From positions 49,149 through 113,148 of the forward strand of contig DATILL010000065.1 in NCBI GenBank assembly GCA_035476575.1: a stretch of DNA of 64,000 nt, given 5' to 3'. The notes under the pieces were generated by a model. It made no database searches, was not told the DNA's origin, and was given only the letters and a program-made list of their open reading frames with translations. Positions within the stretch are counted from its first letter, which is position 1, and each line of letters starts with the position of its first letter. This document shows positions 2,013 through 18,700 of this stretch, piece by piece. The position numbers and the translations under genes were made by a program. The stretch is from Mycobacteriales bacterium (GTDB lineage: Bacteria; Actinomycetota; Actinomycetes; Mycobacteriales; JACQDL01).

Positions 2013-2750
2013 GTGTCTCTCGGTGGACGTACAGGGTATGGCTGCGGCAACGATCGAGTGCAGTCGGCTGTTCAGGATGAGCTGCTGAGCCTGCTGGCGA
2101 CCGCGGCGCGGGCCGCCGGGCTGGCCCGCGAGTCGTGGGTTCGGCAGGGCAGCGGGGACGGCGAGCTGGCGATAATTCCGCCCGGTGAGTCCGAGCCCGC
2201 CGTGGTGGACGGCTTTGTCGGTGAGCTGGCGGGGTTGCTGTATCGCCGTAACCGCGACAGGGCTCCGGCCGACCGCCTGCTGCTGCGGCTGGCCGTCGAC
2301 CATGGCCTGGCGGGGCCGACGTCCAACGGGTTCTCCGGCCGGCCTGTGCTCGCGGTCAGCCGCCTGGTCAACGCCGCCGTGGTCAAGCAGGCCTTGGTGG
2401 CCGCAGCGGACGCCAGCCTGGCGGTGATCGTGTCGCAGCAGGTCTACACCGACCTGATCATCAGCGGCCACACCAGCCTGGAGCCCAGCTTGTTCCGCCG
2501 GGTGCGGGTGCGGGAGAAGGAGCTCGACGAGCACGCGTGGCTGCGGGTGCCCGGCGTCGACGTACACCGGCTTGTCCTCACCCCCGATCCGGCGGCGCCG
2601 GACGGTGGCCCGCCAGACGCTGACCTCAGCCCGCGCGCCCCCGGCGCCGAGGAGGACCGCGGCCCCGCCCCCCGGGTGACCGCCGAGCACAGCAACGTCG
2701 CGATGGGCGACGGCAACGTCGTCGGCACCGGCAACGTCGTACGGCGGTGA
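2013..2750 (+). CDS. Cyclase-fold-like protein (possible class III nucleotidyl-cyclase homology domain) with a C-terminal G/N/V-rich motif; its 5' end is probably frameshifted
   Basis: The motif order YLCLSVDVQG(Y)G .. GDGELAI .. LRLAVDHG .. GFSG .. SRLVNAA .. LAVIVS matches the cyclase homology fold by eye only. The best start is ATG 1981 (RBS GGAGGGG). It encodes MTGTGSFARYLCLSVDVQG in another frame. That frame joins this ORF only if 1 nt is added in the GGG run at 2034-2036. The stop overlaps the next gene's start (GTGA at 2747-2750). Confidence 0.55.
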   Translation: MSLGGRTGYGCGNDRVQSAVQDELLSLLATAARAAGLARESWVRQGSGDGELAIIPPGESEPAVVDGFVGELAGLLYRRNRDRAPADRLLLRLAVDHGLAGPTSNGFSGRPVLAVSRLVNAAVVKQALVAAADASLAVIVSQQVYTDLIISGHTSLEPSLFRRVRVREKELDEHAWLRVPGVDVHRLVLTPDPAAPDGGPPDADLSPRAPGAEEDRGPAPRVTAEHSNVAMGDGNVVGTGNVVRR

Positions 2751-5700
2751 CCGGTCCGCGGGGGAGCGATCCCGGCCCGGCGTCCAGCCTGGTGATCAGC
2801 GGCAGCCAGGTCGCGGTGGGCGACCGCAACGTCGTGGGCGACGGCAACGTCGTCGTGGACAGGTTCGTCTTCGAGGGATGGGCACACGTCTCCGAGCCCA
2901 CGACCCGGGACGAGGCCGCCGGCATGCTGCTGTGCCCGCCGCCGCGGCCAGCGAGCGATGCGCTGCCGGGCGGGTGGTTACGGCCGGAGGCGGGGGTCAT
3001 CACGCCGTGGCGCCGCCCTGAGGCCGAGGATCTGGTCCAGTGGTGCGTGGGCAAGCCGACCGGGCTGCTGCGGCTGGTGCACGGGCTGGGCGGGCAGGGA
3101 AAGACGCAGCTTGCCGGGCAGGTCTGTGCCGAGCTGCGGCAACGCGGCTGGCTCGCCGGGTTCGTCGAGCTGCCCGCGCCAGGCGGCGGCGAGGTCCCGG
3201 CCGTCGGCCGCGGTGCGGGCCTGCCGATCTCAGCCTGGTCGCACCGGCAGTCAGAGATCATGACGGCGGTCCGGGCGCTGCCGAAGCTCGGCGTGTCCGC
3301 ACTGCTGGTGGTGGACTACGCCGAGAACCACGCCGCCGCGGTCGGCATGCTGCTGCGGGAGGCGGTACGGGCCGCGACCGCGCCGACCGCATCGACTCCA
3401 CCGCGGATCCTGCTGCTCAGCCGCGGTGAGGTGGACTGGCTGGACGACCATCCGTGCCGGGGCTGGGTCCATCCGGAGCCGATCCTGCTGGGACCGCTGC
3501 CGGGCTCGTTGTGGGAGGCGGGCGGGGAGTTCGCCGAGCTCGACGCGGCAGAGGTGGTCGCGCAGGTCTGGACCAAGGCGGTCACCCAGTTTGCTGCCCA
3601 TGTGGAGAGCGGCCCGCTCACGACCACGGCGGAGCCTGGGGCGCTTGCCGCGGCGGCACTGGCGACCGGCACGCCGACCAGCTTCCTGACCACGTTGGAC
3701 CTGTACGCCGACGCGCTGCTGCGTGTCCTTGACCGTGCGCAGCAGCTCGCCGGCCCCGCCGAGGCTGGCGCGTCCAGGCCCGGTGGCGACCCGATCAGCG
3801 GGATCCTGGCTCACGAACGGCGGGTCGTCGCGCAGGCGTTCGCGGCGGCTGGGGTGGACCTCGACGGGTACGAGCGTGACCGGGCGGTCTGCGTGGCCTT
3901 CCTGCGGCCGGCCGCTGACAGCACCTCTGCCGCGGATGCGCTGGCCACGTTGCCGGGGCTGCGCGCCTTGCCTGCCGGCCAGCGTGACCGGGTGGTCGGC
4001 GTGCTGGCCAGGTTGTTCCCGTCGGACGGCGGCGAGAACGTGTGGGAGGCGCCGAGGCCGGACCGGCTCACCGACACCCACCTGCTGCGCGTGGCCCAGG
4101 CAGCGCGGTCCGGCAAGGACTTCGACGACTACGTGGTGGCGGTCTGCGGCGGCGATGACCGGCAGCTCGCCGGCCACACGGCCCGGACCCTCCTCCGCGC
4201 CCTGTCCACGCCGGGGGCGGCCGTGTGGTACCCGGTTGGGCTGCGGCGGGTCGAGGGCTCGATCACCGCCCTGGCCCGCGCTCACCCCGGTGGGTACGTC
4301 CCGGCGCTGGTCGCGCTGGACCCCGTCCGGTTCGAAGACGAGATCCTGGACACGCTCGACGTACGGCGTACGGCGGCGGGGAGCCAGCCGCTGCCCATCG
4401 AGCCGGTGGAGGACATCGACTCCGAGCTGCGCCGGATCGGGGCCACGACCTCCCGGCTGCGGATCGCGGTCGCGGTGTCCCGGCGCCTGGTCGAGGCCAC
4501 CCGCCCGGCGGGCACCGCCGAGGACGACCCGGTGGAGGTCGCCCGGCACGCCGACCAACTGGTCGGGCTGAGCCGGCGGCTGGCCGAGGCGGGCTCGCTC
4601 GGTGAGGCGGTCGGCCCGGCGCGGGAGGCGGTCAAGTGGTACCGCCCGCTCTTCGACGGCGACCCCGAGACATACCGCCAGGCTCTGGCGGCGGCGGTGA
4701 CCAACCTGGGCAGCCGGCTGGCCGACGACGGCGCGCCGGCTGCCGCGCTGGCCGCGGCCGAGGAGGCCGTGACGTTGCGCCGGGAGCTGGCCGAGACCGG
4801 CAGCCACGAGCATCAGGTCGACCTGGCCTCGGCGCTGCACAACCTCGGCCTGCGGCTGTGGGACGCCGAGGAGGTCGACCGCGCCGTCGCCCCGGCCGGG
4901 GAGGCAGTCACGCTGCTGCGCGCGCTGGCCGCGGCCGACCCGGCTGAGCAAGCCCGGCTGGCAGTCGTACTGACCAGCCTGGCCCAGATCCACGCGGCCA
5001 CCGGGTCGCCAGTCCAGGCCGTGGCGGCGGCGCGGGAGGCTGTTGCGATCATGCGGCGGCTGGCCGAGGCCAACCCCGACGGCTACCTCCCCGGGCTGGC
5101 CGCGGCGCTGGTTGCCCTGTCCGCGCACCTGAGCCCGCCCGCCGGTCGACCGAGGATGTCCAGGCCCGTCCGGGAGGCGGTCCGGCTGGCCGCCGAAGCC
5201 GTCGAGACCTGCCGCCAGCTCGCCGTCGTCAACCCGCTTGCCTACGAGCCCGACCTCGCCGCCGCCCTGACCAACCTCGGCCTGCGATACGCCACCGCGG
5301 GGCAGGCCACGGAGGCGGTCACCGCCACCGAGCAGGCGGTCGACATCCGTCGGCGGCTGGCCGGGCACGACTCGAACCGCCACCGCGCCGACCTGGCCGC
5401 GTCGCTGAGCAACGTCGCCCTGCAGGTGGGCTCGACCCGGCGCCGCGCCGACGCGCTGGCGCCGGCACGCGAGGCGGTGGAGGTCTACGGGCAGCTCCAG
5501 GAGGAGCTTCCCTCGGCCCGCTCAGATCTCGCCGCGGCCCTGACCAACCTCGGCTACCTGTTGGCCGCCACGGGGCGAGACGATGAGGCGATCGCACCGA
5601 CCGCCCAGGCCGTCGCTACGTACCAGCAGCTCCTCGCCGACCAGCCCCAGCTTGTGCAGCGCATCTACCTCGCCGAGGCTCAGTACAACCTTGGCCTGCA

Positions 5701-8005
5701 CTACACCCATACTCGACACCCCCAGGACGCCGTCGAGGCGCTGACCGCCGCCGTCGACGGCTACCGCCAGATCGCCGAGACACACCCGCACGCCGTCCAT
5801 GCCGGCCTGCGCGCGGCCACCGCGGCACTCGACCACGCCCAGGCGCCCGGCACCGGCGCAACCGCCCACCCGGACCGCGCCCGAACGCAGGTCCGCTACG
5901 CCCGCCGCTGGCACGAAGAGGCCATCCGCTACCCGCTGCCCGGCATCATCATCGTTCTCGGCTGGCGGACCGACCTGGCCGCGCGCCAGCCCCGCCAGCG
6001 CACGGTCCGCGACGATCTCGTCGCGCTGGTCTTCGATCGCAAGCGTGCCGCCACAGCCGCCGAGGCCACCAGCACTGAAGAAGCCGCCACCGGCGTACCG
6101 GCCGCGCCGGCCAGCGCAGCCACCGGGGCGCTGTCCGGCATCGCCAACCGCGTCTCCCAGCTCACCGGAACCCTGACGGCCCGCGTCGCCAGCTCTCGCC
6201 TCCTGTCCCCACTGGTTGCCAACAGCAACATCACCCAGCTTGGCAAGGTCGTCGGCCTCGCCACCGCCCTCACCGCCCTGGTCGCCGGCGTCATCGTCGT
6301 GGCACCCGGCCACCATCCGGCGCCCGCGCCATCCACCGACGTGGCCCAGTCGACCCCAAATCCCACCTTCCCCCCCGGCCCGGGTCAGACCGGCGGGCCG
6401 CTCGTCCCCGGCTCTACGTCGAGCAACGGCTCCACGTCTGGGACCGGCTCTACGTCGAGCAACGGCCCTGGTGTTACGTCGAGCAATGGGGCCGGCTCCA
6501 GCCCCTCAAGCGGCTCTAGCGTTTCAAACCCCGATATTATTAATACACCCTGCGGGCAGAACCAGCACGCCGTTGCCGTTCCCCATGACCCTAGTCCGGC
6601 GACGATGTCCCTATCGAACCCGAACGTCGTGTCGCCCTCGAACCACGGCGTCTCGACGTGGGCAATGTCCCGCGTTGCTCGTATGGAAGCTGTCAGTTTG
6701 ACTGCCCCGACATTCGCCATCCGCATCGACGCCACGCGTCTAGTCTACCGACGCTTCTTCATCCCTGGGGTGACCTCCCACGTGTGGGTGGATTCCCGAT
6801 TGGTACAAACATTACAGCTTGCGCCCGGCTCATATCCGTTCCAGTTTGCTTCTGGCTACTTCGCCGACTTCAGGTTCACGGTGACCCAGGCTGGAAAGAT
6901 CGACTACGACTCCCGTTTCAATAGTTTCCTGTCCGGAACGGGTACCTCCACACTCACTATCTCGGGCTTCTTGGTGACCCTGGATGCCCGTCATCTGTCG
7001 GGCCTTGGCGTCCTGCTCGCTCACATGCCAGCCCAGGGCTGGATCACCTACACGCAGGTTCGCATGGTTCCCGCCTCGCACTACGATGTGCAGAGCCCAG
7101 GTGGCATCGCGAGCTTTTCATTCAAGCTGGGACTCGACGGGCGGTTCTCGTACGGCTCTTCTCTGGACGTGAGAAGCGGTGGAGTCCTTAAAGGAAACGG
7201 GACCTCCTCGTTGGAAATCGTCGGTTATCCTATCCGTATCGACGCCTCACGCCTATCTTATCGGTACTTCCTTATCCCTAACATAACGCTCAAATTCATA
7301 GACGCTCAGACGATACCCACCCTGCAGGTCCTGCCAGGCTCATACGCGTTTCAGTTTGCTTCCGGCTACTTCGCCGACTTCAGGTTCACGGTGACCCAGG
7401 CCGGACTGATTGACTACGACTCCCGCTTCGCGGGTTTCCTCAGTGCGTATAGGTCCACACTTACTGTCACCGGCTTATCGGTGACCCTGGACGCTCGGCG
7501 CCTGTCGGGCCTTGGCATTCTGCTCGCTCACATGCCAGCCCAGGGCTGGATCACCTACGAGCAGGTTCGCATGCTCCCCGCCTCGCACTACTCTGTCCAG
7601 CAAGGCTCGGGCGAGGTCACGAGCTTTATCTTCAAGTTGGGGCTTGATGGAAGGTTCTCGTACGACTCTTCTCTGGACGCCAACAGCGGCGGGTTCCTCA
7701 AAGGAAACGGAACCTCCACCCTAGAATTTCTCGGCTACCCGCTATGTGTTGACGCACGGTCCGCCGGAGGAGCAGGGGTCACCGTCGAGCCAATCCGGGG
7801 AATGCCGTTCAGTACCACGCACGTCCAGCTTGCCTACCTGCTCCCTGCGCCGTACTTCAGACTCAGGTTCAATCCTGGCCATGCTCCGTTCTCCCTCGCA
7901 CCGAATGGCACCTTCAGCTTCGATAGCGCTCTGTCACCCTACTTGCGTCTGGAGAAGCGCGGCGGCATAACTGTGCTCACGGTTCTCGCGCCACCCCCTG
8001 CTTGA
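2747..8005 (+). CDS. NLR-like STAND NTPase (P-loop NOD) with TPR array, one TM helix, Ser/Gly/Thr linker and C-terminal tandem beta-rich repeats (1752 aa)
   Basis: The N-terminal motif SQVAVGDRNVVGDGNVV spans 2804-2854. Walker A is GLGGQGKTQLAG (about 3085-3110) and Walker B-like is LLVVDYAEN. About ten TPR_10/12-like units carry a recurring AAALTNLG..L...GR..EA pattern (about 4500-5800). A hydrophobic helix LGKVVGLATALTALVAGVIVVAP lies at about 6240-6305. An S/G/T-rich linker spans 6400-6530, and five roughly 85-aa repeat units run from 6712 to 8005. Confidence 0.85.
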   Translation: MTGPRGSDPGPASSLVISGSQVAVGDRNVVGDGNVVVDRFVFEGWAHVSEPTTRDEAAGMLLCPPPRPASDALPGGWLRPEAGVITPWRRPEAEDLVQWCVGKPTGLLRLVHGLGGQGKTQLAGQVCAELRQRGWLAGFVELPAPGGGEVPAVGRGAGLPISAWSHRQSEIMTAVRALPKLGVSALLVVDYAENHAAAVGMLLREAVRAATAPTASTPPRILLLSRGEVDWLDDHPCRGWVHPEPILLGPLPGSLWEAGGEFAELDAAEVVAQVWTKAVTQFAAHVESGPLTTTAEPGALAAAALATGTPTSFLTTLDLYADALLRVLDRAQQLAGPAEAGASRPGGDPISGILAHERRVVAQAFAAAGVDLDGYERDRAVCVAFLRPAADSTSAADALATLPGLRALPAGQRDRVVGVLARLFPSDGGENVWEAPRPDRLTDTHLLRVAQAARSGKDFDDYVVAVCGGDDRQLAGHTARTLLRALSTPGAAVWYPVGLRRVEGSITALARAHPGGYVPALVALDPVRFEDEILDTLDVRRTAAGSQPLPIEPVEDIDSELRRIGATTSRLRIAVAVSRRLVEATRPAGTAEDDPVEVARHADQLVGLSRRLAEAGSLGEAVGPAREAVKWYRPLFDGDPETYRQALAAAVTNLGSRLADDGAPAAALAAAEEAVTLRRELAETGSHEHQVDLASALHNLGLRLWDAEEVDRAVAPAGEAVTLLRALAAADPAEQARLAVVLTSLAQIHAATGSPVQAVAAAREAVAIMRRLAEANPDGYLPGLAAALVALSAHLSPPAGRPRMSRPVREAVRLAAEAVETCRQLAVVNPLAYEPDLAAALTNLGLRYATAGQATEAVTATEQAVDIRRRLAGHDSNRHRADLAASLSNVALQVGSTRRRADALAPAREAVEVYGQLQEELPSARSDLAAALTNLGYLLAATGRDDEAIAPTAQAVATYQQLLADQPQLVQRIYLAEAQYNLGLHYTHTRHPQDAVEALTAAVDGYRQIAETHPHAVHAGLRAATAALDHAQAPGTGATAHPDRARTQVRYARRWHEEAIRYPLPGIIIVLGWRTDLAARQPRQRTVRDDLVALVFDRKRAATAAEATSTEEAATGVPAAPASAATGALSGIANRVSQLTGTLTARVASSRLLSPLVANSNITQLGKVVGLATALTALVAGVIVVAPGHHPAPAPSTDVAQSTPNPTFPPGPGQTGGPLVPGSTSSNGSTSGTGSTSSNGPGVTSSNGAGSSPSSGSSVSNPDIINTPCGQNQHAVAVPHDPSPATMSLSNPNVVSPSNHGVSTWAMSRVARMEAVSLTAPTFAIRIDATRLVYRRFFIPGVTSHVWVDSRLVQTLQLAPGSYPFQFASGYFADFRFTVTQAGKIDYDSRFNSFLSGTGTSTLTISGFLVTLDARHLSGLGVLLAHMPAQGWITYTQVRMVPASHYDVQSPGGIASFSFKLGLDGRFSYGSSLDVRSGGVLKGNGTSSLEIVGYPIRIDASRLSYRYFLIPNITLKFIDAQTIPTLQVLPGSYAFQFASGYFADFRFTVTQAGLIDYDSRFAGFLSAYRSTLTVTGLSVTLDARRLSGLGILLAHMPAQGWITYEQVRMLPASHYSVQQGSGEVTSFIFKLGLDGRFSYDSSLDANSGGFLKGNGTSTLEFLGYPLCVDARSAGGAGVTVEPIRGMPFSTTHVQLAYLLPAPYFRLRFNPGHAPFSLAPNGTFSFDSALSPYLRLEKRGGITVLTVLAPPPA
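6712..7745 (+). repeat. Intragenic tandem duplication (about 510 bp / 170 aa, two copies, each made of two roughly 85-aa sub-units; a fifth divergent unit follows to 8005)
   Basis: The string cagtttgcttc(t/c)ggctacttcgccgacttcaggttcacggtgacccagg occurs at 6842 and at 7352, an offset of 510. The protein blocks FAIRIDATRL..TLTISG/FLVTLDARHLSG..SLEIVG repeat as YPIRIDASRL..TLTVTG/LSVTLDARRLSG..TLEFLG. The region is visibly AT-richer than its surroundings. Confidence 0.9.
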
Positions 8006-8339
8006 CCCAGGCCGGTCCAACTCTCAGCCCCGATTCTGCGGTAGCGTCAAAGTTAGTATTCGCATTATTAGATAATCTCGCGGCGAGGTTAGCTCTATGT
8101 GGCAAGTCAGATCCCGCTGGTGGCGAGTTCGGGTGTTCCGGGTGCGCGGTATCTGTGGGGGAGTGATGGTCAAGGCACGGTGGCAGGCACCCCGCGGATC
8201 AACAGCCGGATCCGCAGACCCGCAGTTCGAGCAGTAGGAAGCTGCCGGTTCATTCATTGGAGCTGGCTGCGACGTGGTAACTTCGTCGGCGGTCCCTCTA
8301 AACCGGCCAGGAGCTGTGCGCCAGACCCCACTATGTGGT

Positions 8340-9452
8340 CTACGCGGCGGGTAGCTGCCAAATGTGGTCAGTGTCGAGCCGGACGAGCTGCTGGTCGTGG
8401 CGGATAGTGAGCAGGTAGGCGTCGTAGCTGGGTTTGCCGAGGTGCTCCCATTCGGAGTGGGCGGCCTCGACCTCGTCCCAGAGCCGGCGTGGGCCGTTCT
8501 GGGTGACGGTGCCGGCGGGGGTGATATGGGCGCGCGAACCGTCAGGGTGGCTGAGGTACAGGTCGGCCAGGTCGTTTCCGCCGTTGGCGTAGCTCAGGCT
8601 GGGCAGCGCGATCGAGAGGTGGAAGCGAAACGGTCCGTCGTACACGGCGGTGCTGGGCAGGTTCGCCTGACGGGATGGGCCGGCGGGCTCGGCCGGCGAG
8701 TGAGGGGCCGGCCCGGGCCGAGTGGCCGCCGTCCCGCGCAGTGGCATGAAGTATGCCCCGGACAGGAACCGGCCGGCGGCGCGGTCACCGTCGACCTCCA
8801 GCAGGGCCAGGCCGCTGGCGATGGGCGCGAGTATCTTCCCGCCGGGCCGAGTCTGCGCGAGCCATGCGGGCGGGACGCGGGTCAGGCCGCAGGTGGCGAG
8901 GATCCGGTCGTACGGCGCGCGAGCTGGGTAGCCGTTGGCGCCGTTGCCGCTGCCAATGAGCGGGTGGTAGCCAGCCGCTGCTAGCCGCTTTCGCGCAGCG
9001 GTGCAGAGGCCGGGGTCGATGTCGATGCTGGTGACGAGGTGGTCGCCGAGGCGATGGCAGAGCAGCGCGGCGGTGTAGCCGGTACCGGTGCCGACCTGCA
9101 GCACCCGGTGCCCGTCGGCTACGTCCAGGTCGTGCAGCATCGCGGCGACCAGGGATGGCATGGTGCCGGAGGAGGTGACGCTGGCGGGGGTGATCTGGGT
9201 GATCAGCGTGCTGTCGCGGTAGACCGCGGCCAGCCACTCCTGCCGATCCTCCACTCGCGTGCTGTCGACCAGACGATAGCCGGGCTGAGCGTAGAATCGC
9301 GGGACAAGCAGGTGCCGTGGTACCGCGGTGAAGGCCGCCTGCCACGCGGGGTCGGGCAGCGACCCATCAGCGACGAGCTCGGTGACCAGCGCCTTCCTCA
9401 GTTCTGCCGCCAGCTCTGTCGCGTCACGCGGTTGTGCGGCTGGACCGTTCAC
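8340..9452 (-). CDS. RiPP-associated O-methyltransferase, protein-L-isoaspartate O-methyltransferase (PIMT) homologue with a C-terminal extension
   Basis: A PIMT-like N-terminal half (AFTAVPRHLLVPRFY) and a SAM-binding GxGxG motif (VLQVGTGTGYTAALL) are present. The preferred start, GTG 9452, overlaps the ATP-grasp stop (GTGA). The tracked ORF begins further upstream, at 9524. Confidence 0.8.
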   Translation of the reverse strand: MNGPAAQPRDATELAAELRKALVTELVADGSLPDPAWQAAFTAVPRHLLVPRFYAQPGYRLVDSTRVEDRQEWLAAVYRDSTLITQITPASVTSSGTMPSLVAAMLHDLDVADGHRVLQVGTGTGYTAALLCHRLGDHLVTSIDIDPGLCTAARKRLAAAGYHPLIGSGNGANGYPARAPYDRILATCGLTRVPPAWLAQTRPGGKILAPIASGLALLEVDGDRAAGRFLSGAYFMPLRGTAATRPGPAPHSPAEPAGPSRQANLPSTAVYDGPFRFHLSIALPSLSYANGGNDLADLYLSHPDGSRAHITPAGTVTQNGPRRLWDEVEAAHSEWEHLGKPSYDAYLLTIRHDQQLVRLDTDHIWQLPAA

Positions 9453-10444
9453 GGCTGTTCCATGAGCAGGTCGGCGATCGACGCGGAGATCGGTATGCCA
9501 GTCCGGTATTCCAACCAGGCCCACTGCCCGGCCGGGTTCACGTCCACCAGCAGATGCCGGCCGGTGCCTTTCTCGACCACAAAGTCCAGTGTGGCGAAGT
9601 GCAGCCCGAGGTGCTTGAGCAGCCGTGCGACGCCGAGCGACTCCGGCTCGGGCAGCTCGCCGATGCGGTAGTCCAGGTCGGCGTAGTGAGCTCGCCAGTC
9701 CAACAGGTCCCGACCGGTGGCCGAGCGGATCTCAACCGCGAACATCTGCCGACCGACGACGGTCACCCGCAGGTCATGGTCTTTGTCGATGAGCTGCTGG
9801 AAGCAATGCCCGGTAGCTCGTATTCCGGGATCTTCCCAGCGCCCGGTAGGGACCTCGGTGACGTACACGACTCTGCTCGGCCGCCCGTGCTTGTCACGGA
9901 GACCGCGTCCGTCCAACGGCTTGTACACGATCCGGCCGCCCACCTCCGCGGCAAACGGCGGCACATCCTCGGGCCGGTTGGTGATCAAAGTGGGCGGCAC
10001 GACCAGACCGCAAGCGCGAGCGGCCGCCAGGTTGACCGGCTTGGACTCAGCCCCTTCCACCGCGGCAGGGTCGTTGACCAGGCGAACAGGTAACGACCGC
10101 AGGACTCCCCACAGCGCGTGACGACCCTGCCGCGCGCACCATTGTCGCTGCTCGGCGGGCAGCGCCTCGGCCGGCCGGACGTCACCGGCTCGGCGCCAGT
10201 ACACCGATCGGAGTCGGGTCAGGTCGACCTCCCGGAGGCCCCACATCGACCCAGACCAACCCTCACCCTTCTCGGCGGCGCCCAAGGTGGCGGTCAGGGA
10301 CAGCCCTGCTGGGAAGTGCGCGCCGTCGATGCGTGCGAAGCTCACCCCCCGCTCCAACAGATGCCGGATGACGTGGTCTGCGGTCGGGTCGACATCGGCG
10401 GTGACAACCAGGACGCGAGGGCTGTCGGGCATGGGTGACGTCAC
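9449..10444 (-). CDS. ATP-grasp ribosomal peptide maturase (graspetide omega-ester/amide ligase)
   Basis: 331-aa ORF with ATP-grasp-type motifs (IVYKPL, FQQLIDKDHDLRVTVVG, LDFVVEKGTGRHLLVDVNPAGQW). It lies between a small precursor ORF and the methyltransferase. The start could be GTG 10444 or ATG 10432. Confidence 0.8.
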   Translation of the reverse strand: MTSPMPDSPRVLVVTADVDPTADHVIRHLLERGVSFARIDGAHFPAGLSLTATLGAAEKGEGWSGSMWGLREVDLTRLRSVYWRRAGDVRPAEALPAEQRQWCARQGRHALWGVLRSLPVRLVNDPAAVEGAESKPVNLAAARACGLVVPPTLITNRPEDVPPFAAEVGGRIVYKPLDGRGLRDKHGRPSRVVYVTEVPTGRWEDPGIRATGHCFQQLIDKDHDLRVTVVGRQMFAVEIRSATGRDLLDWRAHYADLDYRIGELPEPESLGVARLLKHLGLHFATLDFVVEKGTGRHLLVDVNPAGQWAWLEYRTGIPISASIADLLMEQP

Positions 10445-10450
10445 GTTGCC

Positions 10451-10699
10451 TTAGTCGTGCGCGGGGTCGGTGTCGACGGCGAGTGGGTCCTTGCCGTCGG
10501 GGTTGGTTTGCGCGGTGCAGGTCGCCACCATCGGCGCGACCTCGTGTAGCGGCCGACCATCCGGCAACACCGCGATCTGCTGGTCCGGGCAGAGGAAGGC
10601 GGCGGACAACACGGACCCATCAGGGTCGGCTGGGACCGGCAGCGCGAACACCAACCCCAACGGCGGACAAGGCTGCACATCGACGGTTATCGGATCCAT
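10451..10699 (-). CDS. Graspetide precursor peptide (82 aa); predicted core ..ATCTAQTNPDGKDPLAVDTDPAHD
   Basis: ATG 10699 is preceded by GGAGAGGAG. The Thr- and Asp-rich C-terminus surrounds an Asp-Gly dipeptide. The gene sits 6 nt upstream of the ATP-grasp gene. The 268-aa tracked ORF (to 11257) is treated as an upstream read-through artefact. Confidence 0.7.
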   Translation of the reverse strand: MDPITVDVQPCPPLGLVFALPVPADPDGSVLSAAFLCPDQQIAVLPDGRPLHEVAPMVATCTAQTNPDGKDPLAVDTDPAHD

Positions 10700-10949
10700 G
10701 GAGTCTCCTCTCCTGCGGCCAGATCTTATCCGGACGAGGCATGGTTTCTCACCACCTGGTCGGCACGGAAGTGGCTCGCCGTCCTCACGCGGCCGTTTAG
10801 CTACGACGAGCAACCGGCCGATAGGGCAGTTTCTTGAAGACCGAGACCGATATTGTCCGCGGTGCCGTGCGTCAGCCCGTGTTCGATGAAGGGTATGGGT
10901 GCAGAGCCGATCGAGATAGTTGGTCTGCTGGTGTCCGGTCTGTCTGCCG

Positions 10950-11253
10950 CGGGCGTGCGCCGGGGGCGGGTCGCGGCGTGGCAGACTCCACCTCATGTTG
11001 CGCTGGATAACCGCGGGGGAGTCGCACGGCCCCGCGCTGGTCGCCGTACTCGAGGGGCTGCCGGCCGCGGTGCCCGGATGAGCTTCGAGCGGGACGAGGT
11101 CGAGCTGACCGGCGGGGTCCGGCACGGGGTCACGATGGGCGGCCCGGTCGCGATCCGGGTCATGGCCGTCGACCCGGTCGACCCGGACGAGCTCGCCAGC
11201 CTGGCCCGCAACGCCCCCCTGACCCGGCCCCGCCCCGGCCACGCCGACCTGGA
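10950..11253 (+). pseudogene. aroC: Decayed duplicate of the aroC 5' end plus about 40 nt of upstream leader
   Basis: The nucleotide sequence is near-identical to 12072-12470, apart from two internal deletions. Read from ATG 10995 it gives [28 protein letters not shown] and then a stop. Confidence 0.85.
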
Positions 11254-11454
11254 ACATGTGGGCGCGGGCCTATCCGCCCCGGCCGGCAGGAGATCCCGTG
11301 CCTGGTCCGGGACGGCGACGTCGTCCCGGACTGCACCACCTCGTTTCCGCAGGTCAACGGGGGGTGGGACGGTGGGACAGTTCTTGTAGGTCGGCGCTGT
11401 CCCACCTCCGCTACGGACATGCGACACTGGCCAGGGACAAGGAACGGAGGTGCG

Positions 11455-11640
11455 ATGACGACCAGCAACCCCGATCACACCGCGCTGCCTGAGCCGCTCA
11501 CCGTCGAGGAGCTGTTCCGGCACGTCCAGCCCATCCGGTCGGCCGACGACCTCGCCTGCGAGGGCATCTTCGAGACCGACGCCGAGCTGGACGAGTTCCT
11601 TGCGCACGTGGTGACAGCGCGACACTCCGATCTTGCATGA
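11455..11640 (+). CDS. Putative type II antitoxin (VapB-like, 61 aa)
   Basis: ATG 11455 follows a GGAACGGAGG RBS. The protein is small and acidic. Its stop overlaps the PIN-toxin start (ATGA at 11637-11640). Confidence 0.55.
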   Translation: MTTSNPDHTALPEPLTVEELFRHVQPIRSADDLACEGIFETDAELDEFLAHVVTARHSDLA

Positions 11641-12028
11641 AGCGCATCGTCCTCGACACCGACGTTGCCTCTCTCAGTCTCAAGCATCGGCTGCCGCCGA
11701 CCACAGCGGCCCGCCTCGTGGGCTGGCAGCCAAGCGTTACCTTGGGCGAGCTGACACAATGGGCGGAGCTACGCCAGTGGGGACAACGAAACCGCGGGCT
11801 TCTCGACAGTGGCTTTCCGGGGTAGCCGTGCTCCCCTGCACCAGCGAGGTGGCACGGACCTGGGGACGGATTTCCGCCTCGGCAGTACGGCGCGGCCGGC
11901 CACGTCCACAGAACGACACGTGGATCGCAGCCTGCTGCCTCACCTACGGCTTCCCGTTGGCAACGCTGAACCTGAAGGACTTCGCCGACTTTGCCGAACA
12001 CGAAGGTCTGAGGTTGCTCGGCAGTTGA
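11637..12028 (+). pseudogene. vapC: PIN-domain toxin VapC, frameshifted
   Basis: The N-terminus MKRIVLDTDVAS (PIN Asp) is in frame 11637-11825. The rest (WLSGVAVLPCTSEVARTWGRI..NDTWIAACCLTYGFPLATLNLKDFADF) is in the frame of ORF 11633-12028. The frame changes near 11800-11815. Confidence 0.7.
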
Positions 12029-12115
12029 CCCGAGCCCCGACTTCACTGTGACATGGCGCGGTGAACGTCGTAGGGGTGCGCTGGGGCGGGGTCGCGGCGT
12101 GGCAGACTCCACCTC

Positions 12116-15349
<3,234 letters not shown>

Positions 15350-16039
15350 CCCACCCGCACGGCTCAGCCGCCACCGGCAGTCCGGGGCGGCACGGGGTGA
15401 GAAACCCTGGCCGCCTATCTCTCCTACCGCAACTCGATGAAGGTTGGTCCGCGTCGACGCGGGCGCGGCGGCGTAGGGACGCAGCCGAGACGGCTGTACG
15501 GCGTAGCCTCGACGGGCCAAAAGACTAGGCTTCTACGAACCGAGGACACAGCTTCTGCCAAGATTTCCCAATGCGCACCGCGACGGCCGCAGATCGTGCT
15601 TGCCGCGCGGCTTCCGCACCGGCGGTGACGCCAGCCTCCGTCTCGCAGCCCATGCCTGGGCGCCGACCGCTAGAGCCGGTAGGCCTGCACCTGCACCCGT
15701 GCCCTTGGCGATTACAGCCGTCGCCACGCTCGTCTCCAGGCACGGCGAGCTGACCCGTGTCGGTCACGCCGGTCTGGTGGGTCTTGCCCATGTCGGTCCC
15801 CTTCCTCCTGGTCTTCCTGACCTTCTTGGCGGATCACCCGATAACCGCCATACGGCAGGTTGCCGGTGGGGAACCGCTGCCTCATTTCCGAAAGTCCGGA
15901 CAACCTCCATGGCGTGCCCGCCACGGGGGCATCGCCACCTGGCGCCTGGTGGCTCCTTTCTTGGCGGCAGCGGAGAGAACTAAATTTCAGAAAACGTGGT
16001 TCTCAACGACAACCGACCGCCACCCTAGGGGGAGACGGC

Positions 16040-16774
16040 ATGGCGGCGCGACAGGAGATAAGACTTGAACTACTGGGTGTCTTTCGGCTTCGGTACGCAC
16101 AGACCGCCGTTGTCCTGCGCCCAAGCTCGCGCCGTCTTATCGCGCTGCTGGCCGTTACCGGAACTCAGGCACGGTTGGACGCCGCCGCGCGGCTGTGGCC
16201 GGACCTGCTGCAGGCCCGAGCCGCGTCCAACTTGCGCACGGCGGCCTGGCGGATCCGGCAGGACGCGTGTGGGCTCCTGGTCAGCGAGGGCGACGTGCTG
16301 CGGCTTGAGGAGCTGAGCTGCGACCTCACGGAGGTACGGGACTGGGCGCGCCGCACGGTGGCCGGTGAGCAGCTTAGCCACCTCCCTGAGCACGCGGCGG
16401 CGGAGCTGCTGCCCCGGTGGAGCGACGAGTGGCTTATCGAGCCCCGCGAAGAGCTCCGGCTCCTGCAGCTGCACGCGCTTGAAGCATTAGCGCAGCGACT
16501 CCTCATGGCTGGTCGGCTCGCTGAGGCATGCACTCACGCGCTGACCGCCGTGATGATGGACCCACTACGCGAAAGCGCTACCCGGCTGCTTATCGAGATT
16601 CATTTGCGCGAGGGCAACACTCTGGACGCCGTCCGGAGGTTCCACCGCTTTGAGGAGCTGCTCGACCAAGAGCTCGACGTTGCGCCCAGCCCCGCGATCA
16701 CCTCTCTGGTGGCTCCCCTTATTACGTCGAAGCGTGCGGCGGGGGTTGACCCGCGAAGGCTCCGCCGGACCTGA
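16040..16774 (+). CDS. SARP-family regulator (OmpR-type winged helix plus bacterial transcriptional activation domain)
   Basis: The protein starts at ATG 16040 (MAARQEIRLELLGVFRL..). A BTAD-like helical region is present (LLIEIHLREGNTLDAVRRFHRFEELLDQELDVAPSP). It lies immediately upstream of the lanthipeptide genes. Confidence 0.75.
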   Translation: MAARQEIRLELLGVFRLRYAQTAVVLRPSSRRLIALLAVTGTQARLDAAARLWPDLLQARAASNLRTAAWRIRQDACGLLVSEGDVLRLEELSCDLTEVRDWARRTVAGEQLSHLPEHAAAELLPRWSDEWLIEPREELRLLQLHALEALAQRLLMAGRLAEACTHALTAVMMDPLRESATRLLIEIHLREGNTLDAVRRFHRFEELLDQELDVAPSPAITSLVAPLITSKRAAGVDPRRLRRT

Positions 16775-17009
16775 GGCTCAGCCACCCTCCGTGGCCGCCG
16801 ACCGCACCATGTGCCCGATAACTCCGTTCTCCGGCAACCCGTTCATCAACGCGTCGACCACTCGGCGTCGGCGCGGCTGCGACGGCATCGAGGCATCGCC
16901 GCGGCGCCCGCGCGGTGAGCTCCCGGCGCGCGAGGAGCCAGTCGACCCACGGGTGGGGAACGTAGCCCGTGCCATGGTCCTGGTGACGCACTCGCAAGGG
17001 AGGGGTCGA

Positions 17010-17372
17010 ATGGCCGACGGCGTGGACCTCGCGCATTTGCAGGAGCTCGAGCAGCGGCTCGCCACGCTCGAGGCACAGTCAGGCCAGCCATCAGGCGGCA
17101 GTGAACAAGGATCCGGAGGTGTCGGAATGACCAGCGGTCAAGGCCAAGCCCCAAGCCCAGAGCAACAAGGGCTTATGCAGGCGTTCTTGCAAGGGGCCAT
17201 GGCGGCCCAGGCGCTCGCCCAAGCGGCGGCACAGCAGGCGGGCCAAGCGGGCCAGGCGGTCGTCGGCGCGCAGGGCGGTGCAGCTCCAGCGGGGTTCACG
17301 AGCTACGACTCCATCTTCTGGTGCAGGAGCCGGTTCATGTGCAACCCGCAGTCAATCTCCTGCTTCTGCTGA
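17010..17372 (+). CDS. Lanthipeptide precursor (120 aa); C-terminal core ..FTSYDSIFWCRSRFMCNPQSISCFC
   Basis: ATG 17010 follows a GGGAGGGG RBS. The leader opens with an amphipathic HLQELEQRLATLEA segment and continues as a long Q/A/G-rich stretch. The last 25 residues contain 6 Ser/Thr and 4 Cys. The kinase and LanC genes lie directly downstream. Confidence 0.75.
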   Translation: MADGVDLAHLQELEQRLATLEAQSGQPSGGSEQGSGGVGMTSGQGQAPSPEQQGLMQAFLQGAMAAQALAQAAAQQAGQAGQAVVGAQGGAAPAGFTSYDSIFWCRSRFMCNPQSISCFC

Positions 17373-17539
17373 GGACGAGAAGAGGCACCTGAGCCGGGCG
17401 GGGCGTCGCGGCCCACGCCATGCCCTGCGCATGCCGTGTGCGGCGCTCCCCTGGCTTGGTCCTTGCGCGCAGCCGGCGAGGAGTGCGGCCCAGTGCGGAA
17501 TGCGGCCAGTGCGGAATGCGGCCCAGTGAGGAGTGGACG

Positions 17540-18700
17540 GTGACGGACAAGCTGCTGACCGAAGCTCACGGAACCCTGACCGAGACTGAGGTCATCCCAT
17601 ACCTGCGCGAACGCGGTCTCGTCGACGGCGCCAGCGTCGTCGACGGCGACATCCGCGTTCTCGACGTGTCGCGACGGAACCGGAACTTCCGCGTGCTCCG
17701 CTCCGCGGGACCGTCGTTCCTGCTCAAGCAGGGCGTCGCGCGGGACAGCTTCAGCGCTGTTGCCCGGGAGGCACGTGCTTATGAGCTGTTCGGCCCGTTG
17801 CCCCACAGCGTCGGGGCGGGATCGTCGCCAGCGTTTCGGCACGCGCCAACCGCGTACGCATACGACGACGAGCGCGACGTGCTGGTCCTGGAGCTCGTGA
17901 CCGGCGTGGAGAACCTGCGCGTCCGGCACCGGCGCGCGCGCCGCCCGCCGCGAGACGCCGCTCGTGCCGTCGGGCGGGCGCTTGCCGCGCTGCACCAGCT
18001 TGTGCCGGCGACGGTCGACCTGGCCACGGCGCAGCGGCTGCTGGGGGCCGGCGAGCCTGGTGTCTTGTCGGTGCAGCGTCCGGGGCTGAGCATGCTGCGC
18101 GACTTCAGCAGCGCGTGCGTTGACCTGGTGCGGATGGTCCAGGCGGCGCCCGACGTCCCCGAGCTGCTCGCCGGCCTGCGGCAGGACTGGCGCACTGACA
18201 CGCTGATTCACCATGACGTCCGCTGGGACAACTTCCTGCTGCCCCTTCCGCGCGCGCGAAATGGCGCACGCGGCCGGCGTGAGGTCATGCTCGTCGACTG
18301 GGAGACCGCCGCCCTGGGCGACCCCTGCTGGGATGTCGGCGCGGTGTTTGGTGAATATCTCGGCGACTGGCTCAGCTCCGTCCCGGGTGTGGCAGGAGAG
18401 CCGCCAGAGCGGTTCCTGCATTTGGCGCGCTGCCCGCTGGAGTCGGTGCAGCCAGCCGTCCGGTCGTTCTGGTCGGCCTATGTCGGGCAGGCCGGCCTGG
18501 CAGCGGGACAGGCCAGCGAGCATCTTCTCCGGTCAGTCCGGTACTCCGGGCTCAAGCTGGTTCAGTCTGGCCTGGAGCAGGTGCAACGGTCCGCCCGGTG
18601 GACCGTCTGCACCGTGTCCTTCCTGCAGGTCGGGGTCAACATCCTGACCAGGCCGGAGGAGGCTGGCGCTGTGCTGCTCGGGTTGGGAGGCGTGGCGTGA
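17540..18700 (+). CDS. Aminoglycoside-phosphotransferase-like kinase (LanK-type dehydration kinase candidate)
   Basis: GTG 17540 follows a GAGGAG RBS. The catalytic loop is HHDVRWDNFLL and the metal-binding segment is LVDWETAALGDPCWDVG. Its stop overlaps the next gene's start. Confidence 0.75.
   Translation: MTDKLLTEAHGTLTETEVIPYLRERGLVDGASVVDGDIRVLDVSRRNRNFRVLRSAGPSFLLKQGVARDSFSAVAREARAYELFGPLPHSVGAGSSPAFRHAPTAYAYDDERDVLVLELVTGVENLRVRHRRARRPPRDAARAVGRALAALHQLVPATVDLATAQRLLGAGEPGVLSVQRPGLSMLRDFSSACVDLVRMVQAAPDVPELLAGLRQDWRTDTLIHHDVRWDNFLLPLPRARNGARGRREVMLVDWETAALGDPCWDVGAVFGEYLGDWLSSVPGVAGEPPERFLHLARCPLESVQPAVRSFWSAYVGQAGLAAGQASEHLLRSVRYSGLKLVQSGLEQVQRSARWTVCTVSFLQVGVNILTRPEEAGAVLLGLGGVA

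Follow-up and report, generated by a model that had tools for sequence, protein, structure and literature searches.

A three-gene cassette for a predicted graspimiditide in a metagenome-assembled genome of the Mycobacteriales

The window, that is, the whole 64-kb stretch of DNA analyzed here, comes from a metagenome-assembled genome and carries an intact three-gene cassette whose sequence predicts a small ribosomal peptide stapled by side-chain esters and bearing an aspartimide. The cassette is a rare and uncharacterized, but otherwise ordinary, member of a well-described actinobacterial natural-product family. Its genes, each of them single-copy within the window, are intact, match the families of the graspimiditides (group 13 graspetides), retain conserved motifs and evolve under purifying selection, and homology to the closest relative marks the cassette boundaries. 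Reading the chemistry, the order of the steps and the modified residues from characterized homologues, we consider it highly probable that the cassette is a functional graspimiditide biosynthetic unit. The original prediction had called it a three-gene graspetide cluster with a PIMT-type methyltransferase, and all three open reading frames were found in place and matched the family HMMs. Precursor, ATP-grasp ligase and PIMT-type methyltransferase together define the graspimiditides, a family with 962 to 1,432 catalogued clusters and four characterized products; the label 'fuscimiditide-like' greatly understates its size and how well it has been charted.

Organization of the cassette

The three genes lie on the minus strand. 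The precursor gene (10451..10699, stop included) was identified as an open reading frame running from an ATG at 10699 to a TAA at 10451-10453, and its sequence reads as an 82-aa peptide, MDPITVDVQPCPPLGLVFALPVPADPDGSVLSAAFLCPDQQIAVLPDGRPLHEVAPMVATCTAQTNPDGKDPLAVDTDPAHD. The calculated average mass of this untagged peptide, Met1 included, is 8466.5 Da, and V54-D82, the fragment expected from GluC cleavage, has an unmodified monoisotopic mass of 2949.35 Da. Direct reading also located a Shine-Dalgarno-like sequence, AGGAGAGGAG (10705..10714, minus strand), 5 nt 5' of this ATG. The ATP-grasp ligase, or graspetide synthetase (9449..10444, minus strand, 331 aa), begins at a GTG at 10444 that is preceded by AAGG and separated by 6 nt from the precursor stop, an in-frame ATG at 10432 being an alternative start, and it ends with a TGA at 9449-9451. 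The PIMT-homologue O-methyltransferase of the PAMT type (8340..9452, minus strand, 370 aa) starts with a GTG at 9452, so that it overlaps the end of the ligase gene by 4 nt as GTGA (9449-9452), and its stop lies at 8340-8342. A longer form of this ORF, extended to 9524, was rejected as upstream read-through only, both NCBI and JGI calling the 370-aa form. The order precursor-ligase-methyltransferase with close junctions, another element of the original prediction, was thus seen directly, and the cassette forms a single operon-like unit. Two terminator-like matches within the precursor gene were disregarded, being on its opposite strand.

In frame, GC3 ranges from 0.81 to 0.85 and GC2 from 0.47 to 0.54 over the three ORFs. 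Compared with a copy at 87-90% identity on a JGI contig (L003), dN/dS was 0.26, 0.19 and 0.23 for precursor, ligase and methyltransferase, respectively; the precursor core, with one non-synonymous and three synonymous changes, gave 0.09.

The modifying enzymes

The ligase best matched TIGR04187, the SAV_5884 type (E 1.1e-93, profile positions 2-311 of 312), with MvdD next at 141 bits and the MvdD/MvdC models ranging over 137-141 bits. It carries the MvdD pre-ATP-grasp domain PF21068, above the cutoff of that model, and retains 39 of 39 invariant columns in an alignment of 14 homologues. Its relatives in the PDB are MdnB 5IG8, 9BOU, MdnC 5IG9, AMdnB 7M4S, CdnC 7MGV and PsnB 7DRM. The methyltransferase best matched TIGR04188 (E 1.1e-104, profile positions 1-361 of 363) and also matched PF01135. 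TIGR04186, TIGR04187 and TIGR04188 had been named beforehand and were indeed the best matches for the three proteins, yet both enzymes fell slightly under the NCBIfam curated cutoffs, the ligase with 313.9 bits against 350 and the methyltransferase with 350.7 against 380; these cutoffs are annotation thresholds and no biochemical criterion. The cassette thus agrees with the graspimiditides in ligase type, methyltransferase architecture, precursor layout and co-location of the genes, and departs from them in the enzyme cutoffs. Because both scores are below these cutoffs, the enzymes represent a divergent branch and no textbook members, and since, in addition, the nearest ligases from cultured genomes show 40-46% identity, the specificity of ligase and methyltransferase could differ.

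In the literature, the hallmarks of RiPP-associated PIMT homologues are a SAM motif, an extra C-terminal domain and the motif WxxxGxP. Two of these motifs occur in the methyltransferase as GTGTG at residues 121-125 (GxGxG) and WEHLGKP at residues 335-341 (WxxxGxP); both are conserved in the family alignment, and W335, G339 and P341 are conserved in 27 homologues. An AF2 model of the protein (pLDDT 90.7) found its best fold match in the T. maritima PIMT 1DL5, with 360 columns aligned across the two domains. Sequence and predicted model together point to the two-domain architecture of the RiPP-associated homologues. A canonical protein-repair PIMT (Pcm, a single-domain protein of about 210 aa) was rejected on the size of the protein and on its scores of 106.5 with PRK00312 (cutoff 188) and 87.3 with TIGR00080 (cutoff 159). 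NCBI names it only 'methyltransferase domain-containing protein', as it does in some 50 related clusters, which show 47-53% identity.

Leader and core of the precursor

In a profile search the precursor matched TIGR04186 at 26.8 bits (E 4e-6), passing the cutoff of 25. It is identical to NCBI HSV65863.1, annotated "putative ATP-grasp-modified RiPP"; the exact precursor was thus already annotated. The expectation of a probable new family member holds. A word-based search retrieved two proteins and an exhaustive profile search 16 matches, of which roughly twelve are real precursors. Two large, multi-stretch proteins among these matches (P0127 and P0130) look like low-complexity matches.

The putative recognition motif of the leader, P13-L14-G15-L16 (PLGL; 10652..10663, minus strand), is a variant of the RPFG/PFGL of graspimiditide leaders, and its P13 and L16 are unchanged across an alignment of 14 related precursors. 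The sequence recognized by ThfB is RPFG (PMC13003496). The predicted core comprises residues 57-82 (MVATCTAQTNPDGKDPLAVDTDPAHD; 10454..10531, minus strand), as delimited by conservation by position in 20 related cores, with a putative leader/core boundary. Its layout is a Thr-rich segment (T60-C-T62-A-Q-T65), a loop with the DG pair (NPD68G69KDPLAV) and an Asp-rich segment (D76-T-D78-PAH-D82). The core TCTAQTNPDGKDPLAVDTDPAHD falls within a small, mainly metagenomic subfamily in which T65, D68-G69, D71, D76, D78 and D82 are conserved. Counted from D68, T(-3), D0-G(+1), D(+8), D/E(+10) and D(+14) are kept in 18 to 20 of the 20 related cores and S/T(-6) in 16. The D68-G69 codons (10493..10498, minus strand) would form the aspartimidylation site in the loop, D-G being present in all 20 relatives. 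Residues T62 and T65 are candidate ester donors, and D76, D78 and D82, possibly also D71, candidate acceptors. If T65 and D76 are linked, they enclose a 10-residue loop with P-D-G placed as in fuscimiditide. The conserved donors are spaced by 3 residues whereas the conserved acceptors are spaced by 2, 4, 5 and 6, so that the 'sequence-wise parallel' pattern of the characterized members cannot arise and ester connectivity is not confidently predictable. An AF2 model of the precursor from a 14-sequence alignment (mean pLDDT 68, core 54-62) had no confident core hairpin and is no guide to this connectivity, a result consistent with the random coil that the fuscimiditide paper describes for ThfA. 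A PDB sequence search that used the precursor and the 28-aa core as queries did not recover the 7LIF or 8DYM peptides, queries so short giving too little signal. The leader sequences PADPDGS and LPDGRP were considered as a second core and rejected, since neither a Thr-rich nor an Asp-rich segment flanks them and they are unconserved in the relatives L004 or P0129.

Proposed route to the mature peptide

On the mechanism established in ThfB/ThfM, AmdB/AmdM, GsaB/GsaM and SsfB/SsfM, the ligase would bind the 82-aa precursor through the PLGL of its N-terminal leader, activate the side-chain carboxylates of core Asp residues as acyl phosphates at the expense of ATP, and couple them to Thr hydroxyls, the resulting omega-esters closing a stem-loop. 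Probably no more than two or three esters are formed. The inner link would most likely be T65-D76 around the loop NPDGKDPLAV; a second could join T62 to either D78 or the C-terminal D82, these partners being a guess, and a third link is possible. The methyltransferase would then recognize the cyclized peptide only and methylate the side chain of loop D68 in a SAM-dependent reaction, after which the backbone nitrogen of G69 would attack the methyl ester, releasing methanol and leaving an aspartimide with a net change of -18 Da. The leader would finally be removed by a protease encoded elsewhere.

The same enzymes and esters could also lead to another end product, namely isoaspartate or an Asp/isoAsp mixture at residue 68, with the aspartimide as a short-lived intermediate (the 'PAMT' view). 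SsfM does turn Asp81 of its graspetide into an isoAsp/Asp mixture via an aspartimide intermediate, and the aspartimides of fuscimiditide, amycolimiditide and albusimiditide hydrolyze chiefly to isoAsp. However, the aspartimide form was isolated for three of the four characterized graspimiditides, and ThfM and AmdM re-methylate isoAsp, so that the product is driven back to the imide. The sequence carries no feature that discriminates between the two outcomes, and we regard isoaspartate as an unlikely, though by no means negligible, alternative to the aspartimide.

Genomic context and mobility of the cassette

The cassette is flanked by a convergent gene for a TPR protein and by a decayed aroC fragment; the neighborhood debris also includes a frameshifted PIN gene. 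Inspection of the flanks revealed no adjoining exporter or protease, as the original prediction had stated. Such absence is the norm for graspimiditides, for none of which a native protease is known. TPR proteins being statistically associated with ATP-grasp loci, a role in the system was considered for the adjacent 1,752-aa TPR protein and rejected: homology to L003 stops 3 nt past the methyltransferase stop, and no relative carries this gene beside the cassette.

By blastn, L003 aligns to the window only at 8337-10849, its flanks being unrelated, which sets the extent of the conserved cassette (8337..10849, minus strand) at the three genes and roughly 150 nt of upstream sequence. Another relative, L001, aligns only at 8350-10640. 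The order A-B-M (precursor, ligase, methyltransferase) recurs in L001, L002, L003 and L004, and the methyltransferase lies directly downstream of the ligase in 74 of 85 actinobacterial (Actinomycetota) ligase loci. The ligase of L003, the closest relative, is broken by deletions of 1 nt and 165 nt, which means that the cassette can decay.

These observations bear on whether the host carries the cassette as a cryptic or decaying passenger that it acquired recently and does not express or no longer uses productively. The unrelated surroundings of the 87-90% identical copy, with homology ending at the cassette edges, the broken L003 ligase and the debris in the window would all suit such a passenger, and so would the outcome of a sigma-70 consensus scan, which found no promoter-like site; but in high-GC actinobacteria such a scan has little power as a test. 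The three intact ORFs, the strong Shine-Dalgarno-like site, the translational coupling, the host-like GC3 and dN/dS values of 0.19-0.26 speak against it, and we hold a passenger to be quite improbable. As for a fortuitous adjacency, in which a meaningless small ORF happens to lie beside a PIMT for housekeeping protein repair and an ATP-grasp enzyme of the RimK/glutathione-synthetase kind, generic PIMT and RimK models do match, weakly, but the RiPP-specific models score higher by 244 bits (TIGR04188 over PRK00312) and 278 bits (TIGR04187 over rimK_fam), the small ORF is above the TIGR04186 cutoff and conserved with low dN/dS, and the trio is kept as a unit across many genomes, so that chance is effectively refuted.

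A functional graspimiditide cassette thus remains our preferred reading, and a more specific one may be put forward tentatively, with the doubt outweighing the confidence. The peptide might represent the first subtype of graspimiditide whose ester register is non-parallel (T62-D78 or T62-D82, possibly with a third link via D71 or T77), made by a divergent enzyme clade of uncultured Mycobacteriales/Pseudonocardiaceae that is systematically under the NCBIfam cutoffs, and hence under-counted in annotation-based surveys, while the 2.5-kb cassette, having no mobility genes itself, might pass from one genome to another as a discrete unit.

The chemistry of the graspimiditides, a RiPP family defined only recently, is unusual in that an enzyme installs an otherwise 'damage-type' aspartimide. 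To this family the cassette would add a compact core from an uncultured lineage, and a fuscimiditide-like loop on an unlike stem could help to define recognition by the ligase and the methyltransferase. Such a core might also serve as a small scaffold for cyclization engineering, as done with ThfB. A sizeable clade of these ligases and methyltransferases sits below the annotation thresholds.

Comparison with known systems

The original prediction likened the cassette to the fuscimiditide gene set of Thermobifida fusca (thfBAM; Elashal et al., bioRxiv 10.1101/2021.05.19.444834; NMR structure 7LIF). The likeness holds for the three-protein set and the short C-terminal core, but not for gene order: the precursor is central in thfB-thfA-thfM, whereas the window has the A-B-M order of amycolimiditide, albusimiditide and SsfA. 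By the residue positions published in the text of that paper, the fuscimiditide loop T7-Y-P-D-G-x-K-P-x-x-S-D18 (P9-D10-G11) and the window loop T65-D76, if this is the inner ester, both have 10 residues, with P-D-G at loop positions 2-4 and Pro at 7. The outer pair T3/D22, in contrast, corresponds to Cys61/Ala80 in the window precursor, so that the parallel diester register T3-D22/T7-D18 is absent and an outer ester would have to use other residues. The leaders differ as well, in PLGL against RPFG.

Amycolimiditide (amdABM), albusimiditide (gsaABM) and SsfA(BM) share with the window the lack of a protease or exporter. They also have a Thr-to-Asp ester stem-loop and a loop Asp-Gly target, as predicted for the window product, and a methyltransferase whose C-terminal domain bears WxxxGxP, as found in the window, and native amycolimiditide has a 10-residue loop like the one predicted here. 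All four characterized graspimiditides are modified at the loop Asp-Gly. The amycolimiditide, albusimiditide and SsfA peptides, however, carry four or five esters on long TxT...DxD stems, e.g. HxTSTx3TxTxTx3DGx7DxDx2Ex2DxD in Cluster 1a, while the window core has two conserved upstream hydroxyl residues only and lacks the conserved His just before the donor region. Streptomyces ligases are about 40-44% identical to the window ligase.

Microviridin-type systems with solved structures (MdnB/MdnC, CdnC, PsnB) have homologous ATP-grasp ligases whose MvdD-type pre-ATP-grasp domain binds the leader. They are without a PIMT-type methyltransferase, differ in core motifs and ring topologies, and are often associated with a protease or ABC exporter.

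Two further groups of relatives are uncharacterized as far as the literature searched shows. Relatives in Pseudonocardiaceae MAGs (L005, L010; P0131-P0138) have the core PTE[TK]DGKDPI[SN]VD[ST]DPFYD, and those in Streptomyces and Yinghuangia (L008, L011, L020, L021, L040, L046) the core C[NQ]TESDG[QKR]xxIxVDxDQNDD. Enzymes of both groups are 41-53% identical to those of the window. The window and both groups have in common the A-B-M order, the leader elements P[FL]GL and L[CD]Px.Q[IL].V..DG.P, and the core skeleton T(-3)-x-x-D-G-[KQ]-D-x-I-x-V-D(+8)-x-[DE](+10)...D(+14). Within this skeleton the window subtype places N-P ahead of D-G (TNPDG) and T/S at -6, whereas in the Streptomyces subtype position -7 is T/S and position -5 is Cys.

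Gene organization and family assignment

Three ORFs running in the same direction on the minus strand occupy window positions 8340-10699. The precursor gene, an 82-aa ORF, extends from an ATG at 10699, with a AGGAGAGGAG stretch 5 nt upstream, to a TAA at 10451-10453. Six nucleotides past this stop, the ligase gene begins at a GTG (10444) with AAGG just upstream and an in-frame ATG at 10432, and it ends with a TGA at 9449-9451. The methyltransferase gene is read from a GTG at 9452 to 8340 and its start overlaps the ligase stop as GTGA (9449-9452), as had been stated in the original prediction. A longer mechanical ORF reaching 9524 was discarded as read-through; both NCBI and JGI call the 370-aa form. 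In-frame GC3 was 0.81-0.85 across all three ORFs, and no second copy of any of these genes was found in the 64-kb window.

The ORFs, the GTGA junction and the HMM matches bear out the predicted three-gene graspetide cluster with a PIMT-type methyltransferase. Each protein matched the NCBIfam model proposed for it, yet only the precursor exceeded the curated cutoff (TIGR04186, 26.8 bits vs 25, E 4.1e-06), the ligase (TIGR04187, 313.9 vs 350, E 1.1e-93) and the methyltransferase (TIGR04188, 350.7 vs 380, E 1.1e-104) remaining under theirs. The ligase match was full length, with MvdD and MvdC as runners-up at about 140 bits, and Pfam recognized an MvdD pre-ATP-grasp domain. Its relatives with solved structures are graspetide ligases throughout (MdnB, 9BOU, MdnC, AMdnB, CdnC and PsnB), and all columns invariant in 14 ligase homologues are retained.

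The methyltransferase also matched its model at full length, ahead of the FxLD lanthipeptide methyltransferase (131 bits) and the housekeeping PIMT models (107 bits or less); Pfam assigned it to PCMT. Its structural relatives are all PIMTs, with T. maritima 1DL5 ranking first, and its AF2 model (pLDDT 90.7) aligned with 1DL5 over 360 columns covering both domains. According to the literature, the hallmarks of RiPP-associated PIMT homologues are an extra C-terminal domain and a WxxxGxP motif. The motifs GTGTG and WEHLGKP (WxxxGxP) were both conserved in an alignment of 27 sequences. About 50 homologue clusters (among P0145-P0260) showed 47-53% identity to this protein; MAGs of Pseudonocardiaceae or Streptomycetales supply most of them, and their NCBI name is simply "methyltransferase domain-containing protein", the name "ATP-grasp peptide maturase system methyltransferase" being given to relatives farther off. 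Apparently, the entire subclade lies under the TIGR04188 cutoff.

Precursor relatives and core conservation

The precursor is identical to HSV65863.1, which comes from a Mycobacteriales MAG and bears the name "putative ATP-grasp-modified RiPP"; the methyltransferase is HSV65861.1. Close relatives of the cassette are few. When 1.84 billion cluster representatives were searched exhaustively with a profile, related precursor clusters numbered only about a dozen, and the best ligase among 185,579 species-representative genomes, from a Pseudonocardiaceae MAG, was 46% identical. Four metagenomic contigs carry related cassettes, all in the order precursor-ligase-methyltransferase (A-B-M): L003 (precursor 87% and ligase fragment 91% identical), L001 and L002 (ligase 65%) and L004 (ligase 50%). 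Of 85 ligase loci inspected, 74 had the methyltransferase gene directly downstream of the ligase gene.

Twenty cores were aligned on their D-G, with the Asp as position 0. D68 and G69 (0 and +1) were invariant, as was an acidic residue at +10 (D/E 20/20; D78). T65 (-3, T 19/20), D71, D76 and D82 (+3, +8 and +14, each D 18/20), T62 (-6, S/T 16/20) and V75 (+7, V 16/20) follow the consensus; at +5, where 19/20 have I, the window has L73. The precursor and its relatives also share two leader motifs, L[CD]Px.Q[IL].V..DG.P and P[FL]GL, the latter corresponding to RPFG, the recognition sequence of the fuscimiditide precursor ThfA.

Selection, mobility and genomic context

In a comparison with L003, the closest copy, the ligase and methyltransferase had dN/dS values of 0.19 and 0.23; the precursor had 0.26, falling to 0.09 in its core, where one L-to-I change was seen. 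Nucleotide homology with L003 was restricted to window 8337-10849, with unrelated flanks, and the match with L001 to 8350-10640. Thus, the cassette behaves as a discrete 2.5-kb unit occurring in differing genomic contexts. The adjacent TPR protein gene, aroC fragment and toxin-antitoxin pair do not belong to it. The L003 precursor and methyltransferase genes are intact, and its ligase gene looks decayed: deletions of 1 nt and 165 nt (L003 10001-10821, window 9467-9887), the larger removing the C-terminal part with the family-invariant NPxGQW segment, point to either a pseudogene or an assembly error. The window ligase, unlike this copy, is intact.

Convergent to the cassette lies a gene for a 1,752-aa TPR-repeat protein with a domain of unknown function (2747-8005, plus strand). 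Its C-terminal part consists of two tandem copies of about 510 nt (repeats 6804-7755, 72-86% identical) with a GC content of 0.58-0.61, vs 0.70-0.77 over most surrounding sequence. On the other side, between the cassette and the intact chorismate synthase gene aroC (12116-13294), there is a decayed direct duplicate of the aroC 5' end (10952-11252 vs 12073-12470), 95-97% identical, spanning 43 nt upstream and about 355 nt of coding sequence with internal deletions of 64 and 33 nt. The two copies bracket a VapBC-like pair (11419-12028, plus strand), an arrangement suggestive of a scar left by insertion or recombination. The genes of this pair overlap by 4 nt; the putative antitoxin (73 aa, 11419-11640) has no Pfam match, and the PIN toxin gene is frameshifted, its N-terminal frame ending at 11825 and the PIN match resuming in another frame to 12028. 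At the window start, a 50-nt tandem direct repeat (15-114, two copies, 70% identical) precedes a prepilin-peptidase (A24) gene (194-877), and a Crp-like HTH protein is encoded at 1439-1840.

A second RiPP locus was observed about 7 kb away (15860-21120, plus strand), between aroB/aroQ and an M24 peptidase gene. It comprises a BTAD/SARP-type regulator (15860-16774), a candidate lanthipeptide precursor ORF with a Cys/Ser/Thr-rich tail, ...GFTSYDSIFWCRSRFMCNPQSISCFC (16650-17372), an LxmK-like kinase (17420-18700; NF038156, 100 bits, under its cutoff) and an 840-aa HopA1 and LanC-like fusion (18598-21120). The locus has the look of a class V-type lanthipeptide cluster in which lyase and cyclase are fused. 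L001 in turn carries three graspetide loci inside 10 kb (3142-12902): the relative of the window cassette (7069-9438), an oppositely oriented A-B-M cluster whose core reads PTVPDG...PPPLDEGEKD (3142-5704), and an Actino_peptide (PF14408) precursor paired with a ligase but lacking a methyltransferase (11694-12902). Adjoining these loci are genes for IS605 OrfB and resolvase.

Predicted product and comparison with known graspimiditides

The inner ester would join T65 and D76 across the 10-residue loop NPDGKDPLAV, so that Pro-Asp-Gly would fill positions 2-4 of the loop and a further Pro position 7. This geometry is identical to that of fuscimiditide (T7...D18, with P9-D10-G11 and P14), and the native loop of amycolimiditide also has 10 residues; on this basis the aspartimide is predicted to form at D68-G69. 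Proline has no amide proton and an Asp preceding it cannot form an imide, which excludes D71, as its next residue is Pro. The outer ester is uncertain. C61 and A80 stand at the positions used in fuscimiditide. The conserved T62 is 3 residues from T65 whereas the acceptors D78 and D82 are 2 and 6 from D76, so a "sequence-wise parallel" ester rule cannot hold. T62-D78 is favoured; T62-D82 may form instead, or a third ester may be present. The precursor AF2 model gave no usable hairpin. Confidence is high for a graspimiditide pathway as the general mechanism and low for the exact ester connectivity.

The precursor/ATP-grasp/PIMT-homologue trio is the defining set of graspimiditides (group 13 graspetides), of which surveys counted 1,326, 962-1,083 and 1,432 clusters, nearly all in Actinomycetota. 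Products are characterised for four of them: fuscimiditide, amycolimiditide, albusimiditide and SsfA(BM). In all of them the ligase acts first, forming Thr-Asp omega-esters that close a stem-loop, and the methyltransferase works only on the cyclised peptide, methylating one loop Asp preceding Gly, which then collapses to an aspartimide. The original prediction was correct that no exporter or protease lies in the cluster, but this is typical rather than unusual, as clusters in the surveys consist of three genes; no graspimiditide has a known native leader protease. The proposed new family member is indeed uncharacterised. The known family, at 962-1,432 surveyed clusters, is far bigger than a likeness to fuscimiditide alone implies, and the cassette is a new representative of a small subfamily of this well-known type. 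Its likeness to the fuscimiditide set extends to the three proteins but not to gene order, which is B-A-M in T. fusca; the cassette instead shares its A-B-M order with the amycolimiditide, albusimiditide and SsfA(BM) clusters.
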